IMG/VR virus record: IMGVR_UViG_3300027963_000042
Coordinates: 1 to 64,000 of that record
Reading direction: 5' to 3' (one strand)
Length of the DNA stretch: 64,000 bases
Origin: an uncultured virus (IMG/VR IMGVR_UViG_3300027963_000042)
Taxonomy: Duplodnaviria > Heunggongvirae > Uroviricota > Caudoviricetes
Shown here piece by piece: positions 1 to 14,377 of the stretch. Made by a program: the position numbers and the translations under genes. Position 1 is the first letter of the stretch, and every line of letters begins with the position of its first letter. The notes under the pieces are model-generated. The model ran no database searches. It was given only the letters and a program-made list of their open reading frames with translations, and had not been told where the DNA came from.

Positions 1-50
1 ATTTCCGTAGCTTTTTTCTTGAAGTCGTCAAATGATACTATTCTTTCCAT
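1..50 (-). CDS. Partial CDS, N-terminus MERIVSFDDFKKKATE, running off the window
   Basis: ATG at 50-48, GATATATA motif at 73-80 upstream, N-terminal motif shared with other late genes. Confidence 0.6.
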   Translation of the reverse strand, partial: MERIVSFDDFKKKATE

Positions 51-3065: not shown

Positions 3066-5000
3066 TTAATTTTTTCTTTTTGCAAATATTACTCCGTGAT
3101 CTGCATTGTTATCAACCTCTTTTTGTATTAATTCATCATAAAGCTTAACCGCAAAATCAGCGCTAACTAATTTTTCTATTAACATATTGACCCTTCCGTC
3201 GTTATTGTCATGGAATTCTAGAATTATATTTTTAGCTTTAGCTAGAGATGCAATATCAGTATTACTAAGAAGATCATATTCAGCACCCTCTATATCAATC
3301 TTTAGAAGATCAACTGAATCATGATCAGACATCAAAGAGTTTAGTGTTTGCGATTTAACCAAAACAGTATTATCACCTATAGTTTTAGCAATGCTTGAAA
3401 CTAGGCTGTTTCCTGGATCTACACTAAGATTAACATCCTCGCCATCCGCGGTCAAAGCAATCTCACTGAAGATAACATTTGGATTTTCTGAGTGCATTTT
3501 TCTGAATTCATTAGCGGCTAGGTGATTTGGTTCTATTGAGATAACTTTTTCAAACCCTACATCTAAACAATACTCTGTGAATAATCCAACATTAGCACCA
3601 ACGTCAATAGCAACTTTCTTTCGGAATATGCTATCGGTCATAATGTCATATATTCGGTCAGTAAAGAACTCTTCATAGTTTCTAAATATAGGATCTTTTG
3701 TATCCAATCTGCAGATCTTCTTTGTTACGTTCCTAAATCTTATTATAGATTCTGAGATCACCTCTTCTCCCTGTTTATATTCAATTAAGAATCCACCAAA
3801 ATTTGCATTATTTTGGAAATCGTAAATGTGGATGGGCACTGGGATTATCCAATATGATCCACCTAAACTAAAGTTTATAGTGCAATGAAATATATTAGAA
3901 CCGCTGTCCACATCCTTAACATAAACATCACAATCGAGTTCCTTTATGTTTCTTGAATCCCCTATATAAACTATATCAAGTTTATTATCCCATGGAGAAA
4001 ATTTATGTATAAACATATCGCTTTTATTATTCATAGCTAATTCTTTTTTAAGTTCTAATATTTCTCCTATCTGGTTTGCTATCCCTGTTTTATCATCACT
4101 TATAAAAAACTTTAGAGTGTTTGATTCCTGATACATGTCAACGTAGACAGGGAGATTTCTTAGGAGCAATGGGGCTTTCCAAGATATTGCTTCTTTGATA
4201 ACAAGAGGGCTTGTTTCTTTATCATTAAATAAAGGTATTGACGGGAATATAACAAGATCCGCTGCCTGATAGAATAGATCTACGTCATCCCTTTCTCCCC
4301 ATACCTTACAATTGCTGGGAAGATTGCTTGTGATAGGATTCCAATACCATTTAAAATTATCAGCCATTGTACCGATGAAATGAAATTCCACTTCTGGTAG
4401 TAGCCTTGCAATCTCTGCTGTTTCCTTTTGATTTTTTCTTGGTGTAAATATACCTATTTGGATTACGTGTTTCTTATTAGGATCCAGCCCTAATTTTGCT
4501 CTGCTATCTAAATAATCTCTTACAGGTTTCTTAGCTATCTCGTGCTCGATAACTTCTATGGGTACTTTAAGATCTCTTAACAGATTAACCTGCCAAGGGC
4601 TAACGACCACAAATTTATCGGGAAGGTATATTTTTTCTTCAGGTGAAACCGATGAATCGTGCATGGTCTCAAATATTTTATATTCTCTGTCGTCGGAGAA
4701 TATAATATCCAAAAGATGGTGACTTAAGAATTGCTCGCAGGGTTCTTCGAAATGTATAATATCAGGTTTCATCTCCTTAATCGCCTTGATAAGAATATCC
4801 TCAGGCTTTTCCCCCCATGTTATTATTCTCTCCGCACCAAGTATGGATTCTATTCTTTTCCTGATTGTATTATAGGAAAACTCGTGTCTTTTTTCAAAAA
4901 CCCAAACTTCAGCTTCGTCTTTGATTTTGTCTATTTTATTCTTTAAATATTCCGGCATTCCTCCGGTAGACAGATATGGTACAATATAAAAAACTCTCAA
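3066..5000 (-). CDS. GT4 glycosyltransferase fused to FkbM-family methyltransferase
   Basis: STGGMP, RKNQ, ETSPLVIKEA in the GT part; IDVGANVG and LKIDIEGAE in the FkbM part. Confidence 0.85.
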   Translation of the reverse strand: MRVFYIVPYLSTGGMPEYLKNKIDKIKDEAEVWVFEKRHEFSYNTIRKRIESILGAERIITWGEKPEDILIKAIKEMKPDIIHFEEPCEQFLSHHLLDIIFSDDREYKIFETMHDSSVSPEEKIYLPDKFVVVSPWQVNLLRDLKVPIEVIEHEIAKKPVRDYLDSRAKLGLDPNKKHVIQIGIFTPRKNQKETAEIARLLPEVEFHFIGTMADNFKWYWNPITSNLPSNCKVWGERDDVDLFYQAADLVIFPSIPLFNDKETSPLVIKEAISWKAPLLLRNLPVYVDMYQESNTLKFFISDDKTGIANQIGEILELKKELAMNNKSDMFIHKFSPWDNKLDIVYIGDSRNIKELDCDVYVKDVDSGSNIFHCTINFSLGGSYWIIPVPIHIYDFQNNANFGGFLIEYKQGEEVISESIIRFRNVTKKICRLDTKDPIFRNYEEFFTDRIYDIMTDSIFRKKVAIDVGANVGLFTEYCLDVGFEKVISIEPNHLAANEFRKMHSENPNVIFSEIALTADGEDVNLSVDPGNSLVSSIAKTIGDNTVLVKSQTLNSLMSDHDSVDLLKIDIEGAEYDLLSNTDIASLAKAKNIILEFHDNNDGRVNMLIEKLVSADFAVKLYDELIQKEVDNNADHGVIFAKRKN

Positions 5001-5081
5001 TGTTTTGTATTTATAGGTTCTATTGTAAAAGTCAAATAAAATTTCGGGTAAAAGTATTAAAGGGGTGCCTTTGTACGAAAT

Positions 5082-5894
5082 TTATTGATCTAGAGATTCG
5101 CCACAGTTAGGGCAAAATTTCCATGTTTTTTTCTTGGATCTTGTTCCACATCCGGTACAATAATCCCTAATCTCAGTAACCTCTACAGGCTTAGCTGATC
5201 TCGGAAGAATTTGATACTCCGATGTGTAACCGCAATACCAGGAGTAACTACCTGAATCTTTTCCGAAGTCCTGATCAGATTTTTCCCCCTTTTCTACTCT
5301 ACCGGTTTCAAGCGAACCTGCAACCGAGCAGTTAACTAGTCCAGATAATCTTTTAGAAGAGTAACCAATCGTACCACTCAATGCTGAAGTGTTGCTAGCG
5401 TAATAAACATTGTTGGTCGTAGTTCCTCCGAAAATAATAGGATTCACTGTTCCTGGGTCGTTCGTCCAAGTTTGGTGATAAGGTACATAGGCTGTCCCTG
5501 TTGAAAGAGGGCTCCAACTGTAACTCGTGTGTTCCGGATAGAACTCAACCTTTACCTTACCGTTGTTTTTGATTGCCTCTTTAGCCTCTTCTGTGTCATC
5601 AACATCGTAAGTCGAGAATAAGAATTTCTTCTTCTCTTCGATGAAACGATCCAAGAAGTATCTCTGCCCGGGTCTAAGTACTAAACCTGAGCTACTGATA
5701 ATCTTGTCATTGAGATAGATTTTAGCTAAATAGGATGTTGATGTTGGATTATAGAGCTCGATTTGAAACTCTTGTCCATTGTCTAGATAAACTAGATCTT
5801 CCTTTGAGCCGTAGATTTTTTGTCTGTTGTTGGATACGGCTATCCAAGCTTGTGGTTTTGGAGTACTGTATACCCCGATCGTGTTGTTTTTCAT
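5082..5894 (-). CDS. Hypothetical phage protein with C-terminal zinc ribbon
   Basis: 270-aa ORF ending CTGCG...FCPNCG. Confidence 0.8.
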   Translation of the reverse strand: MKNNTIGVYSTPKPQAWIAVSNNRQKIYGSKEDLVYLDNGQEFQIELYNPTSTSYLAKIYLNDKIISSSGLVLRPGQRYFLDRFIEEKKKFLFSTYDVDDTEEAKEAIKNNGKVKVEFYPEHTSYSWSPLSTGTAYVPYHQTWTNDPGTVNPIIFGGTTTNNVYYASNTSALSGTIGYSSKRLSGLVNCSVAGSLETGRVEKGEKSDQDFGKDSGSYSWYCGYTSEYQILPRSAKPVEVTEIRDYCTGCGTRSKKKTWKFCPNCGESLDQ

Positions 5895-5917
5895 TTTACC
5901 TTTTTCTTTTTTTTAAA

Positions 5918-5967
5918 ATCCCATCGCTGCTATTGCTAACAACTCTAAGGCCATTTTGACCCGGGAC
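5918..5967 (-). ncRNA. Putative structured 5' UTR RNA (three-way junction with GCAA tetraloop)
   Basis: GUCCC/GGGAU closing stem, GGGUCA-AAA-UGGCCU and GUUGUUA-GCAA-UAGCAGC hairpins; the G-U pairs work only on the minus strand. Confidence 0.55.
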
Positions 5968-6018
5968 ACTAAGTACGAAAGGCACCCTTTAATACATTCT
6001 ATATATAATCACTGGTTA

Positions 6019-6480
6019 TTACCAGAAATCTTCTCCCTCTTGCCCATTTGAGTATTCATTATAACCACCCAATGAATTATCATAGTCATCATCCTCAAAT
6101 TCTGCATCGCTAAGGAATTCCCTTTCTGATTCAGAAATTCTTTCAAACCAATCCCCGTTGTCTTTATACCAAACGGTGTTTATAGCGGGTGTTCCTGCTG
6201 TCCACTCTATTTTTGAATCATTCGATAAACCTCCTGGTATAATTGAATCTAGATCGTTGACTACTTTTTCTAAATCGTTTTGTAGATCTGTGTCTAGTTC
6301 TACATCATCAACGTATATTTCTAAATATTCATTAAAGTTAGGTTCCATACAATCAATAAAGATATTATATAAAATAATGAAATCTTCTCTTGATTCCATT
6401 AGTAATTTAATATCTAATATTTCGCTAGCTTTAAACTTGTTATTGGTTATTAGCTCTGCATTTAAAATGTAATTCTTCAT
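6019..6480 (-). CDS. Hypothetical acidic protein
   Basis: 153-aa ORF in the prevailing gene orientation. Confidence 0.7.
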   Translation of the reverse strand: MKNYILNAELITNNKFKASEILDIKLLMESREDFIILYNIFIDCMEPNFNEYLEIYVDDVELDTDLQNDLEKVVNDLDSIIPGGLSNDSKIEWTAGTPAINTVWYKDNGDWFERISESEREFLSDAEFEDDDYDNSLGGYNEYSNGQEGEDFW

Positions 6481-6514
6481 TATTTTTTTAGTTGTATATA
6501 CCCATAATGCTTCT

Positions 6515-6799
6515 CTATTTTATTTGGCTTCCCCTAACTTTTATAGTTTCCTCTGTTATCGGTCGAGAATAAAGACTCATTATTTTAGTTCCCTCTACAT
6601 TAGTAAAAGTAATTCTACTTTTCTCGTTTGGCCTCAGTGTAATCGTAACATCACCAGGTTCTTCTGAAATGTCACTCCATGCAAAAACAATAGGATTCTC
6701 GTTATCAAATTGAAAAACCCATTCGGCATCTTTGAAATTTTCTGGTAATCCTGCTATTGTAGCGGATTCCCCCTTTAGTTCTATGTTATTATCTTCCAT
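6515..6799 (-). CDS. Hypothetical protein
   Basis: 94-aa ORF, ATG start, tight gene packing. Confidence 0.7.
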   Translation of the reverse strand: MEDNNIELKGESATIAGLPENFKDAEWVFQFDNENPIVFAWSDISEEPGDVTITLRPNEKSRITFTNVEGTKIMSLYSRPITEETIKVRGSQIK

Positions 6800-6805
6800 G
6801 TTATT

Positions 6806-7409
6806 TTATATAAAGTTTTGACAAAATGTTTTTCTGTGATGTTTGGATAAACCGATTTCTCTTATTGCTGAGATGTGTTCTGGTGTACCGTACCCAACAT
6901 TCTTTTCCCATAGATAATGTGAAAATTCTGGGCTGATAGATTTCATTAGCCTATCTCTATGAACTTTAGCTAAGATAGATGCTGCAGATATACATTGCAC
7001 TTTAGAGTCTCCTTTTATCACACACTCATAATCTATTCCCTTATGTCCAGGAAATCTATCGCCGTCAACATAAAGGAAATCCGGAACTACGCTACAAGAA
7101 TCAATAGCTCTTTTCATAGCTAAAAATGTTGCCTGTAAAATATTGATCTGATCTATTTCCTGTGGCGATGCTGCACCTATTCCCCATGCTATTGCATTTT
7201 CTTTTATTAGTGCTTCCACATCTTCTCTTTTTTTTAAGCTCTTTATGGTTTTACTATCTCTAATTCTAGGATCTAAAAAATCATTGGGTAGAATAACTAC
7301 TGCGGCAACTACTGGGCCAGAAAGACATCCTCTTCCTTCAGCCCACCTCGTCTACACCAGCAATAAATCTTAGCTCGCGTAGAAGAGGCGGATTATTATT
7401 TTCTATCAT
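6806..7409 (-). CDS. rnhB: Ribonuclease HII, interrupted by a 7-nt gap containing TGA at about 7334-7343
   Basis: Upstream frame MIENN..AGVDEVG* then downstream frame (G)RGCLSGPVVAA..RDSK..VDG..KGD..SAASILAKVHRD..NVGYGT..HRKTF. Confidence 0.85.
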
Positions 7410-7428
7410 TATTTTTATTATTAATTTA

Positions 7429-7509
7429 TTAAAATCCTCTTTGACAATATGCCATTGCATTTATCTTTTCTTTTTGCAACCACTGTAAATACTTAAATAA
7501 TCTTTTCAT
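7429..7509 (-). CDS. Small hypothetical protein (26 aa, MKRLFKYLQWLQKEKINAMAYCQRGF)
   Basis: ATGA overlap with the upstream stop; fills the intergenic gap. Confidence 0.4.
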   Translation of the reverse strand: MKRLFKYLQWLQKEKINAMAYCQRGF

Positions 7510-7691
7510 GGACTTTCTATTGGATAATTTTCATATTGAAATATTAAATCTTTAAGTAATTTGTTTTCTTGAATGACTCCTTCACATTTATTACCTTCTT
7601 GAAACACGGTCATACCTATAAAAATTCCAATAACAAACCCTATAAGTAATCCTAATCCGGCTGCTCTATATTCGGTTCTTCTATCGGACAT
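7506..7691 (-). CDS. Small membrane protein
   Basis: Single hydrophobic segment AAGLGLLIGFVIGIFIGM. Confidence 0.65.
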   Translation of the reverse strand: MSDRRTEYRAAGLGLLIGFVIGIFIGMTVFQEGNKCEGVIQENKLLKDLIFQYENYPIESP

Positions 7692-7704
7692 TTATTCTTA
7701 ATTT

Positions 7705-9261
7705 TTATGGTTTAAGTGTGGTGAATTCGCCTTTAATGAAATTGATGTGCTGAGCTTTACCGTCATGGTGAATTATAACGTGCGATTGAAGCCATCCGCT
7801 AGGCCCGATATTATAATTAACCCTTAGCTTAGTTGATGTACCTACTGCAAGTGCTCCGTCTTTTCTACCCGGTGAGTGATAGTGACCGACTACTATTTTA
7901 GTATTAAGTTTTCTGAATTGTACTAAGGATCCTCTGGTTCCGCTAGAACCAATATCTCCATGTTGGCCTAATTCCCAGCCATTGATTACCAAGCTATCGC
8001 TTCTGCCTAGAGTTTTGTACTTGGGGTATTTAGCGTTTATTAAATAAGGTATAACACCGTTTGGAGCCACACCTTTAAGTAGCAATGCACTGTATTCCAT
8101 ATACTCTATGGAATTTTTCATGGTCGAAGCCTTTCTCCAATCAGTTCCTTTTAGCCATCTATCCAAAAAATCATCATGATTACTTCTAACAATTACCACG
8201 TTATATTCTTCAAAGCTTTTTAATCCATCAAGCATGGCATCAACTTCACTCTTAAGAGAATTAGTTCCGTCTAATTCTCTTTGATATTGTATGAAAGGAT
8301 CTTTTGATTCGTGGTGGTTAATAGAAAGCCCATCAAATACATCATGAAGAACTACGTGTTCCGGTTTTAGATTCTTGAATAGATCAAGTGTTTTTAAAAT
8401 GACCCTTTCGTCATGCTGGCCGTAGTGAATATCTCCTAATATAGCAGCTGCAATCGAATCAATCTTAGAAACTTCCCCTTCCTCAACTTTATAGTATAAA
8501 TCGCAGAAATCCCCATCTTCGGTAGCTGTAACCTGTCTGGCAAAGAATGTATTTGCATCTTTAATTTCCACTATAACAAAACCTAATGTGTGATGAAATT
8601 CACCCTTCTTTCCTGATTTTGAATCGGTGTAGTTTTTAAGAGTACATGCTCCGGTGGTCATCATCATCTTAGGAAGATTTCCCTCGAGGACAGGAATTGT
8701 TTCCATATGAACTCTTGGTGATCCAAAGACGCAAGAATTAATTCCGCTCATACCTTGTAGTCCTGTCATTGGATCTACCGCAGTAGGTTGAATCTTGACA
8801 TCTGACATGATCCACATATGTTTATGAACCTCATGACGATTGGCATCAAGATATATTGCTATTCTATTTGACCATTCGTCATAACTTCTGTCAGAAAAAA
8901 CTGAAGTTGGATTTTTATATCTTCCTGCAATGACGTGAATGTCTGCATCTATCTCTTTGGCGTAAGCCTCTATGTTCATTATAAAATCCTCATGAACTGG
9001 AGTATCGTTCTGTGCCCAAGTAATTATAAATTTCTTTTTCTTCTTGTCAAATTTTCTTTCCTTAGCCTTTATGTACTGTGGTGACTCTGTTAGTGCTTTT
9101 TCTGTTATGCCTAATTTAGAAATCCATTTTTGTATTGTCCTTTCGGATTTTCCTATAAGATCACTTAGGGTTTTCATTCTCTGATCCCATGTTAAATCTC
9201 TGTTCCAGTAAATATCCGACATTTTAGATATTTGCTCGTCGTTTAATTCTTCAAACTTCAT
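7705..9261 (-). CDS. T5 A1-like protein: N-terminal HTH plus calcineurin-like metallophosphoesterase/nuclease
   Basis: GDIH, HDVFDG, SNHD, HGD, GHYH metallophosphoesterase motifs; ITWAQNDTPVH and TTGACTLKNY segments recall T5 A1; HTH-like GKSERTIQKW. Confidence 0.7.
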   Translation of the reverse strand: MKFEELNDEQISKMSDIYWNRDLTWDQRMKTLSDLIGKSERTIQKWISKLGITEKALTESPQYIKAKERKFDKKKKKFIITWAQNDTPVHEDFIMNIEAYAKEIDADIHVIAGRYKNPTSVFSDRSYDEWSNRIAIYLDANRHEVHKHMWIMSDVKIQPTAVDPMTGLQGMSGINSCVFGSPRVHMETIPVLEGNLPKMMMTTGACTLKNYTDSKSGKKGEFHHTLGFVIVEIKDANTFFARQVTATEDGDFCDLYYKVEEGEVSKIDSIAAAILGDIHYGQHDERVILKTLDLFKNLKPEHVVLHDVFDGLSINHHESKDPFIQYQRELDGTNSLKSEVDAMLDGLKSFEEYNVVIVRSNHDDFLDRWLKGTDWRKASTMKNSIEYMEYSALLLKGVAPNGVIPYLINAKYPKYKTLGRSDSLVINGWELGQHGDIGSSGTRGSLVQFRKLNTKIVVGHYHSPGRKDGALAVGTSTKLRVNYNIGPSGWLQSHVIIHHDGKAQHINFIKGEFTTLKP

Positions 9262-9296
9262 TAGCAAGTGTTAAGTTTATTATTAGCAAGTGTTAA
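9260..9296. repeat. 15-bp direct repeat ATTAGCAAGTGTTAA, two copies (putative operator)
   Basis: Copies at 9260-9274 and 9282-9296, 22-bp period, between promoter and ATG of the A1-like gene. Confidence 0.7.
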
Positions 9297-13910: not shown

Positions 13911-13914
13911 CGTG

Positions 13915-14377
13915 TGGATCTGCAGGGAGTCGAACCCTGGTCTCCTTCAGTTAATACTAAGAATTCATTCACAGGCTTAGAAAGTTTTTTATAAACTTAC
14001 AAACTAATCGGGTTTATGACACCAGCAAACATTTTGCTGTCTTTTAGTGACTTACAGCTTCAGTCAGAGAACTTATACTAACAGCGATCTTAAGGGTATT
14101 GATGTTATCTCAGGGTTACTGATCATAAGCTCTACTTTTTTGGTACTGTTAACCCTTTTTCCCAACGTCACATTTTTTTAAACGGAGTAAGTGAGACTCC
14201 GGAGGTTATGCAGCGTAAGCGTACTCAACCTCAGTTACAGGAGTACCAAACGAGTTGATAGCGTCCCAAACTGATTTTTTGCCATTTATAGCTTTATATA
14301 GGTTATTAAAGTGTTTCCAATACTAACACTGCCTGCATTCAAAGAACTACGCCTGCGGATCAATTCCGGTCAGACCC
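13915..14377 (-). ncRNA. ssrA: tmRNA (about 463 nt), tag ORF 14283-14206 encoding (A)GKKSVWDAINSFGTPVTEVEYAYAA
   Basis: Acceptor stem GGGTCTG/CAGATCC with G3-U wobble, T-arm CAGGG-TTCGACT-CCCTG, ATAAAT-GGC resume context, tag ending YAA-stop; CCA not encoded. Confidence 0.9.

Follow-up and report, generated by a model that had tools for sequence, protein, structure and literature searches.

The gene described here lies on the minus strand of a window of 64,000 nucleotides (nt), the whole stretch of DNA that was analysed, which covers positions 1 to 64,000 of the IMG/VR virus record IMGVR_UViG_3300027963_000042, from an uncultured member of the Caudoviricetes. The record comprises 137.8 kilobases (kb), is estimated to be 50% complete and is 95% coding. 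A single gene in this window is enclosed by an inverted repeat (5054-5076 and 5973-5995) with one arm in its 5' and the other in its 3' untranslated region (UTR), and pairing between these two arms is very probably a selected feature of the messenger RNA. Gapped comparison of the arms gives 22 identities over 24 columns with two one-base bulges and a spacing of 896 nt, which reproduces the pairing noted when the window was first interpreted from its letters only (the sequence-only reading). Along the minus strand the TATATATA box (6000-6007) is followed by 4 nt, the 23-nt 5' arm (5995-5973), a 78-nt leader, the ATG at 5894, an open reading frame (ORF) of 270 codons ending in TAA (5084-5082), a further 5 nt and the second 23-nt arm (5076-5054), and the earlier placement of the arms around exactly one gene and a structured leader is likewise upheld. 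The features of the locus are as follows:

6000-6007, minus strand: TATATATA box, resembling a -10 promoter element, 4 nt ahead of the 5' arm.
5973-5995, minus strand: 5' arm (U arm) of the long-range helix, from the sequence, a repeat finder, gapped comparison and covariation.
5978-5984, minus strand: UGCCUUU segment inside the 5' arm, complementary to the ribosome-binding region.
5913-5972, minus strand: three-way-junction leader RNA, from an RNAalifold consensus and a covariance model.
5963-5972 paired with 5913-5922, minus strand: helix P1 of the leader.
5958-5962 paired with 5948-5952, minus strand: hairpin A of the leader.
5944-5947, minus strand: first junction of the leader, UAGA.
5937-5943 paired with 5926-5932, minus strand: hairpin B of the leader.
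5923-5925, minus strand: second junction of the leader, GAU.
5895-5912, minus strand: A-rich spacer and Shine-Dalgarno-like AAAGGUA (5897-5903) ahead of the ATG, from the sequence.
5082-5894, minus strand: coding sequence of 270 amino acids (aa), with an immunoglobulin (Ig)-like beta sandwich, a linker and a zinc ribbon.
5054-5076, minus strand: 3' arm (D arm), 5 nt past the stop codon, from the sequence, a repeat finder, covariation and folding.
5036-5085, minus strand: local helix X, seen by eye, in which AAAUUUCG (5076-5083, overlapping the stop codon) pairs with CGAAAUUU (5039-5046).

Among the twelve best inverted-repeat pairs of the contig, only this one has both arms wholly in non-coding DNA, enclosing exactly one gene, and no further copy of the arm 23-mer occurs anywhere in the 137.8-kb contig. 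In 25 Markov shuffles of the 137.8-kb genome, inverted repeats that score as high within 3 kb arise on average 0.92 times per genome. The actual genome has four, so that the match alone is not rare and the unusual part is its placement. The arms had been described as GC-rich, which holds for the GGGTGCC core; overall they contain 43% G+C, against approximately 35% for the window. Each arm alone can fold as an imperfect hairpin of 5-9 base pairs (bp). Helix X places the 3' arm in a loop of its own, with a U-rich run thereafter in the window's clade (read by eye), and compensated variants of this helix are visible in the loci L020, L021, L031 and L032 (also by eye, the MAFFT alignment being out of register there).

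Relatives of the encoded protein are found in 22 phage records, namely 15 Prevotella Lak phages and seven 'uncultured phage' genomes of 462-735 kb, and at 17 further IMG/VR loci. In metagenome contigs a relative is encoded at 203 or more places, of which 80 were kept. After gene calling the comparison set consists of 96-97 non-identical loci with enough flanking sequence and with protein identities of 30%-100%; a blastn search of window positions 4000-8000 against the phage collection found nothing. The 5' UTR from -135 to -65 was compared with the first 36 nt past the stop codon at each locus, with a threshold score of 26. A cognate helix scoring at least 26 is present at 68 of the 96 non-identical loci, compared to 1.8% of 6152 non-cognate pairings between unrelated loci. 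Comparing the RNAduplex energies of 150-nt flanks with those of mononucleotide shuffles gave no information, as huge internal loops dominated. Clustering by single linkage, on 8-mers or 7-mers, lumped almost all loci together via A-rich words; twenty arm types were then picked by eye, with an unpicked control added. Over the 20 arm types the cognate pairings have a mean score of 33.5 versus 17.1 for the non-cognate ones (standard deviation 4.2), the cognate partner is strictly the best in both its row and its column for 15 of the 20, and none of 200000 permutations reaches the cognate sum. With a cruder automatic clustering into 30 groups, 0 of 100000 permutations are as high.

More than a dozen unrelated arm sequences occur in the family, and outside the window's clade the arms have been replaced, yet remain mutually complementary. 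The arms of one large group are GACCUUGUGGUU and AAUCACAAGGUC, including one G.U pair, while other arm types are built on UAGAGCCUGAC, CUGGGGAGCC, GGUUAACUCC, ACAUUAGCUCAAGU, UCUCACUUUGUU and UAUAGCUGUUCG. The distance from the end of the 5' arm to the ATG is 71-103 nt (74-93 nt in most loci) and that from the stop codon to the start of the 3' arm is 1-23 nt (3-15 nt in most loci). Helix length ranges from 11 to 23 bp over the family, with 11-15 bp, and often 11-13 bp, in most subfamilies other than that of the window.

Within the window's clade the arms are nearly the same, with compensatory changes from A-U to G-C in L013-L016 and from G-C to A-U in L018. The 16 full-length loci were aligned with MAFFT without fitting to any structure; in this alignment 90.4% of the cells pair, whereas sliding the partner column by one to three positions gives 39-45.5%. 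Double changes affect four pairs (10 cells), and all 13 one-sided changes produce G.U or U.G on the mRNA strand. The U:D helix is present in both the minimum free energy and the centroid fold of the 956-nt window mRNA (z = -3.2, 20 shuffles), and its predicted occupancy is 0.60-1.00 in 12 of 12 arm types. The sequence-only reading had proposed that the mRNA ends are clamped together and that homologues should carry complementary, covarying UTRs; the cognate 5' UTR/3' UTR helices of the 68 loci and their compensatory and G.U changes support the first proposal and bear out the second. At the level of sequence comparison, these data establish the pairing as selected, sense-stranded and family-wide.

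A subfamily of 13 loci lacks the 3' arm. In these loci the loop of leader hairpin B carries UCACGG, complementary to an invariant terminator loop, CCGUGA, on variable stems. Of 95 loci, 13 have both motifs and 81 have neither; the leader motif occurs alone in one, and the terminator motif never does. This subfamily is one clade and counts as one evolutionary event, but it points to the leader-to-3'-end contact as the trait that is conserved.

Inverted repeats acting at the DNA level, as the ends of a mobile or invertible cassette or as paired protein-binding sites, would also be expected to flank exactly one gene, and the concerted change of the arms could also come from recombination between the two copies. 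The gene order is, however, conserved in relatives with matching flanks, where the upstream 153-aa protein is kept at 21 loci, the RNase HII at 19 and the downstream glycosyltransferase at 14. A recombinase is absent among the seven neighbouring proteins scanned, in agreement with the earlier remark that none is visible, and inversion joints are absent from the DNA contigs of an independent run, which can miss rare forms. Furthermore, the one-sided changes give G.U pairs on the sense strand, where the opposite strand, or a repeat acting as DNA, would have A.C mismatches, and the arms, which are often only 11-13 bp long, are situated between promoter and terminator. The conserved gene order, the wobble pairs and the location of the arms inside the transcription unit thus make the DNA cassette, which had been put forward as the alternative to a clamped mRNA, very improbable. 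Scarcely credible is the coincidence of two local hairpins, the terminator of the upstream gene and that of the gene itself. Each arm of the window is indeed an imperfect hairpin and the chance expectation is approximately 0.9 per genome, but the comparative data already contradict it, given the cognate-specific complementarity of unrelated sequences in 68 of 96 loci, and the 3' arm of L017 and L021 loses its own hairpin yet pairs with the 5' arm (by eye).

The leader of approximately 60 nt directly after the 5' arm is itself structured. The RNAalifold consensus of 21 leaders comprises P1, hairpin A, a UNGA junction, hairpin B, a RAW junction and the return to P1. Covariance model R1 scores 100.8 bits at the window leader and matches 96 times in 100 sources, always on the gene's own strand, with one match in the window and one in the whole contig. 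In a model-fitted alignment of 84 distinct sequences 94.8% of the cells are paired, compared to 63% in shuffles and at most 45.7% in slid columns, and all 21 pairs show double changes; this alignment leans toward the model, and the effect is nonetheless large. The leader positions U47, G49, A50 and A92 are invariant in all 84 distinct sequences; at position 91 there are 55 G, 28 A and one U. Rfam 15 holds no match to the leader, the best hits in 5000-6060 being unrelated (E 1.4-9.7). The comparison shows the leader to be a new structured RNA, the fold of which is, judged by its covariation, under selection. Two copies of it are observed in L035, a metagenome contig of 1726 nt, at 76-160 and 668-752 (99.4 and 96.9 bits) and approximately 590 nt apart, which could represent a duplication or an assembly artefact.

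The available extracts of two studies define the k-junction as a kink turn (k-turn) with an extra helix on the non-bulged strand (PMC10573300, PMC5061560). The RNAalifold secondary structure of the leader has this extra helix on the non-bulged strand, and its strand order is P1-5', hairpin A, bulge and GA, hairpin B, RA, P1-3'. The tandem G.A/A.G signature beside the bulge is present at the level of sequence, and the bulge itself, of three nucleotides in a k-turn, is here predicted to have just two clearly unpaired bases (U47 and N48), next to a mostly G.U closing pair that could open. The topology and the invariant bases of the leader fit the published k-junction description, as far as a secondary structure allows: the invariant G-A after a short bulge and the R-A on the other strand are shared with the k-junctions in the extracts at hand (PMC4005666, PMC10573300, PMC5061560). 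It differs from the k-junctions of thiamine pyrophosphate (TPP) riboswitches in being the mRNA leader of a phage gene, in having no TPP riboswitch match in Rfam and in being known as a secondary structure only. An alternative function for the leader is that of a riboswitch or of another ligand- or ribosome-sensing element, with the arms as its expression platform. The highly conserved three-way junction with its invariant junction bases is consistent with such a role, and k-junctions are known in TPP riboswitches, as reported in the portions available of two papers (PMC4005666, PMC10573300). Against this, no riboswitch of Rfam is matched, the gene is not recognisably metabolic or transport-related and no conserved pocket-like internal loop occurs beyond the junction, making a riboswitch improbable.

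The protein encoded between the arms was modelled with AlphaFold2 from 86 sequences (mean predicted local distance difference test score 74.7). The beta sandwich is modelled confidently and consists of approximately residues 10-125, joined by strands in 194-231, while the linker (127-191) is disordered and rich in S, T, G and N. The zinc ribbon recognised in the sequence-only reading is located at the C-terminus, as CxxC...CxxC with four invariant Cys residues. No significant family was found for the protein in PHROGs, NCBIfam or Pfam (Pfam DZR scores 19.2 bits against a cut-off of 27.3), and Foldseek gave no match against the Protein Data Bank (PDB) at E <= 0.001. Structure alignment (VIA-align) returned generic Ig-like folds only (Z <= 6.2). 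The best PDB profile matches are weak (E 0.016-0.8) and belong to ribosome-associated zinc-ribbon RNA-binding proteins. Twenty-nine viral models, including that of one phage homologue, match the model m57c7b8e73d09 at E <= 0.001. The others are uncharacterised proteins of giant viruses, nudiviruses, baculoviruses, nimaviruses and iridoviruses, and the named ones include baculovirus P22.2, nimavirus wsv390 and the ranavirus immediate-early protein ICP-18. The modelled folds suggest that this may be an old protein family common to phages and large DNA viruses of eukaryotes.

Ribosomal-protein leaders and T4 gp32 provide models of autoregulation. By analogy, the zinc-ribbon protein would bind its own k-junction-like leader, and perhaps the closing helix, as an autoregulatory ribonucleoprotein (RNP) that represses or stabilises the mRNA. 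This is a possibility, though not the favoured one; it is compatible with the explanation preferred below and may be the real role of the leader. The leader co-occurs solely with this gene family, down to approximately 30% protein identity, and the protein ends in a basic zinc ribbon, its weak best PDB profile matches being ribosome-associated and RNA-binding (E 0.016-0.8). K-turns are known as protein-binding sites in the part of the literature available (PMC5061560). All family and fold matches are, however, below significance or generic, so that RNA binding by this protein is conjectural.

The boundaries of the transcript can be predicted in other subfamilies. A sigma-70-like site (TTTACA/TTGACA-16..18-TATAYT) is present in 31 of 66 distinct upstream regions, and in 16 of these 31 sites the -10 element ends 5-7 nt ahead of the start of the helix, which would place the transcription start on the first nucleotide of the arm. 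A strong terminator-like hairpin with a T run follows the gene in 41 of 67 loci; in 33 of these it begins no earlier than the end of the 3' arm, and in L043 and L050 the 3' arm is part of the terminator hairpin. The predicted promoters and terminators would thus include the arms in the transcript, at least in the other subfamilies. In the window's clade an ATATA box is located at the TATATATA position in 16 of 16 sequences. The 3' arm of the window was also considered as an intrinsic terminator and rejected, its hairpin having five pairs and its T run being interrupted. Pieces of the gene are found in three metatranscriptome runs from three studies. The RNA data are assembled Logan contigs of public runs at low depth, which carry no transcript ends, strand or expression level, and the stretches without RNA cover (5555-5782 and below 5042) are uninformative.

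Cleavage provides another possible function for the paired arms. Stems flanking ribosomal RNAs (rRNAs) are cut during their processing, and the arms could likewise form a stem for RNase III, or for another double-strand-specific enzyme, that excises a monocistronic mRNA from a longer transcript. RNase III requires a continuous duplex of about two helical turns, for which 11-15 bp is short. The duplex of approximately 22 bp (with two bulges) in the window's clade would be suited to this purpose, the clade is devoid of a recognisable promoter and terminator of its own, and a contig from an RNA library bridges the upstream gene and the leader, as expected of read-through transcripts. Most of the other subfamilies have helices of only 11-15 bp, however, which coaxial stacking on P1 could lengthen; they have their own promoter and terminator bracketing the arms, and the loop-loop variant offers no long duplex. 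Because most of the helices are only 11-15 bp long, RNase III is unlikely to be the family-wide answer. The proposal of an RNase III stem in the sequence-only reading is thereby reduced to the window's clade, where processing is possible; as an account of the family it is unlikely.

The ribosome-binding site (RBS) region is a second potential partner for the 5' arm. The core of the arm is complementary to this region, and the complementarity follows the arm type: UGCCUUU can pair with AAAGGUA in the window, while the pairs GCCUG/CAGGU, CUGG/CCAG, UUAACU/AGUUAA, CCUUGUG/UAUAAGG and CCUUGUU/AAUAAGG are found elsewhere. Over the 20 types the cognate arm-RBS score is 12.75 versus 9.77 (standard deviation 2.84), and 0 of 200000 permutations reach the sum. 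Controls with the ORF from +4 to +23 (26555/50000) and with the spacer (6226/50000) show nothing. In the centroid fold of the isolated window leader, UGCC is paired with GGUA. As the 5' arm is complementary to the RBS as well as to the 3' arm, the 3' arm has the appearance of an RBS decoy.

Taken together, the element is probably a cis-acting RNA architecture of one mRNA rather than a DNA element. The transcript would start at or beside the 5' arm and continue with the k-junction-type leader, the A-rich ribosome-binding region and the ORF, with the 3' arm a few nt past the stop codon. Pairing of the arms would loop the whole message and place the start and stop codons within approximately 100 nt of one junction. 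The closing helix would bury the 5' end, which may protect the message from 5'-end-dependent decay by analogy with the hbs mRNA of Bacillus subtilis, and it would keep the anti-RBS segment of the 5' arm off the ribosome-binding site. Full-length messages that retain the 3' UTR would alone be stable and fully translatable, while in incomplete or 3'-trimmed messages the 5' arm would fold back on the RBS and shut translation down. That burial of the 5' end and sequestration of the anti-RBS segment license the full-length mRNA in this way is put forward tentatively. More speculative still is a three-partner switch, a 'closed loop' of a prokaryotic virus, where the 5' arm pairs either with the RBS (silent) or with the decoy past the stop codon (open) and the k-junction leader docks the encoded zinc-ribbon protein to form a self-regulating RNP. 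If true, translation would be licensed only once a complete 3' end has been made and while that end survives, a design that huge phages would have maintained at least throughout the divergence of the protein to 30% identity.

Several observations weigh against a closing helix that licenses translation. No helix is found at 28 of the 96 loci, 12 of which carry the loop-loop pair, and the 20 arm types were chosen by eye, with some related by descent. Under neutral scoring, 60 distinct arm pairs hold 51 G.U against 30 A.C, a moderate bias toward the sense strand. Removal of the 3' UTR shifts the predicted accessibility of the RBS by at most 0.12, and approximately two or more base pairs between the U arm and the RBS are expected in 3'-truncated RNAs of just four of the 12 types. 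The local hairpin of the 5' arm would form first during transcription. The window's clade has no full -35/-10 site upstream, with the ATATA box only, and no terminator-like hairpin; a scan of 4700-6600 returned 0 such sites. Two RNA contigs, each from a different study, end within the 3' arm (at 5069 and 5075), and the RNA-library contig joining the upstream gene to the leader (5833-6148) extends across the 5' arm; both observations are weak either way, and the bridging contig could derive from read-through transcription or from contaminating DNA.

Several features of the neighbouring genes are also of interest. A promoter-like pair, TTGACT...TATAAA, can be discerned by eye between the 3' arm and the next gene (window 5030-5035 downstream to 5000, minus strand). 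This next gene encodes a fusion of a glycosyltransferase and an FkbM methyltransferase of 644 aa, with a TTG start and without a Shine-Dalgarno sequence. The RNase HII gene (window 6806-7460, minus strand) is interrupted directly after the catalytic GVDEVG motif: the first frame closes with a stop codon and the remainder (GRGCLSGPVV...) is read in another frame, except in L017, where the frame is unchanged and an in-frame stop codon intervenes. The interruption occurs in five of the 12 copies examined (the window, L012, L015, L017 and L020), which share a distinct N-terminal peptide, while seven are uninterrupted. On this distribution it looks like a conserved feature (recoding or a split gene) rather than a sequencing error. 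Further upstream (7705-9267, minus strand), a 520-aa protein matches PHROG 1745, 'DNA transfer protein' (E 3.6e-148), with a weak match to a metallophosphoesterase family; it resembles T5 A1. A full-length transfer-messenger RNA gene is located at 13912-14377 (minus strand; Rfam 62.2 bits), with the ARAGORN tag peptide EVEYAYAA, and is the sole Rfam match in the window.

Pairing between the UTRs of bacterial-type mRNAs is known from a few individual genes, through experimental work, and the present element extends it to a whole family of uncultivated huge phages, across which the pairing appears to be selected and where natural covariation already stands in for compensatory mutagenesis. It also provides a new and well-supported structured RNA family, a three-way-junction leader whose 84 distinct sequences bear the signature of a k-junction, together with over a dozen naturally occurring orthogonal arm pairs and a concrete model of how a message might sense its own completeness. 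The encoded protein, abundant and conserved in Lak-type and related huge phages, is marked out as probably being under tight control. A narrow full-text literature search found, among the matches listed, no account of such pairing in huge phages, which is not proof that it is unpublished.

Helices that span hundreds of nt and couple translation or processing to folding include the long-distance interactions of MS2 and Qbeta and the stems flanking rRNA operons. Unlike these RNA genomes and rRNA precursors, the molecule concerned here is the ordinary mRNA of a double-stranded DNA phage. In the icaR mRNA of Staphylococcus aureus the 3' UTR reportedly pairs with the Shine-Dalgarno region and represses expression. 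In the phage mRNA the 3' arm is instead RBS-like and pairs with an anti-RBS-like 5' arm, and would activate rather than repress. Pairing between UTRs by way of RBS-like and anti-RBS-like sequences is common to both, according to the accessible part of the icaR report (PMC3868564). As in hbs and icaR, the complementarity connects the 5' and 3' UTRs of the same gene and is kept by selection. The hbs mRNA of B. subtilis contains a 14-bp interaction between its 5' and 3' UTRs that modulates cleavage by RNase Y, as stated in the extracts of that study (PMC5737220). Both systems have a short intramolecular helix between the UTRs (14 bp in hbs, 11-23 bp in the phages) and a small, probably highly expressed gene, and the extracts likewise propose that the hbs helix shields the leader from ribonucleases and ties stability to translation (PMC5737220). 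While hbs, in the sections at hand, is a single bacterial case established by experiment, the phage gene family keeps the contact through full turnover of the sequence and is known from sequences alone. The phage 5' arm, furthermore, is located at the predicted first nucleotides of the transcript and has a conserved three-way-junction leader attached. Distant sequences resembling the anti-Shine-Dalgarno (anti-SD) sequence have been found to pair with the RBS and to reduce expression, in the excerpted text of a further study (PMC12697547). The phage 5' arm similarly contains a pyrimidine-rich, anti-SD-like segment, CCUUU, CCUG, CUGG or UUAACU, according to the RBS of each subfamily. Such sequences are described in those excerpts as harmful and depleted (PMC12697547), whereas the segment in the phage arm is conserved and has a decoy partner in the 3' UTR.

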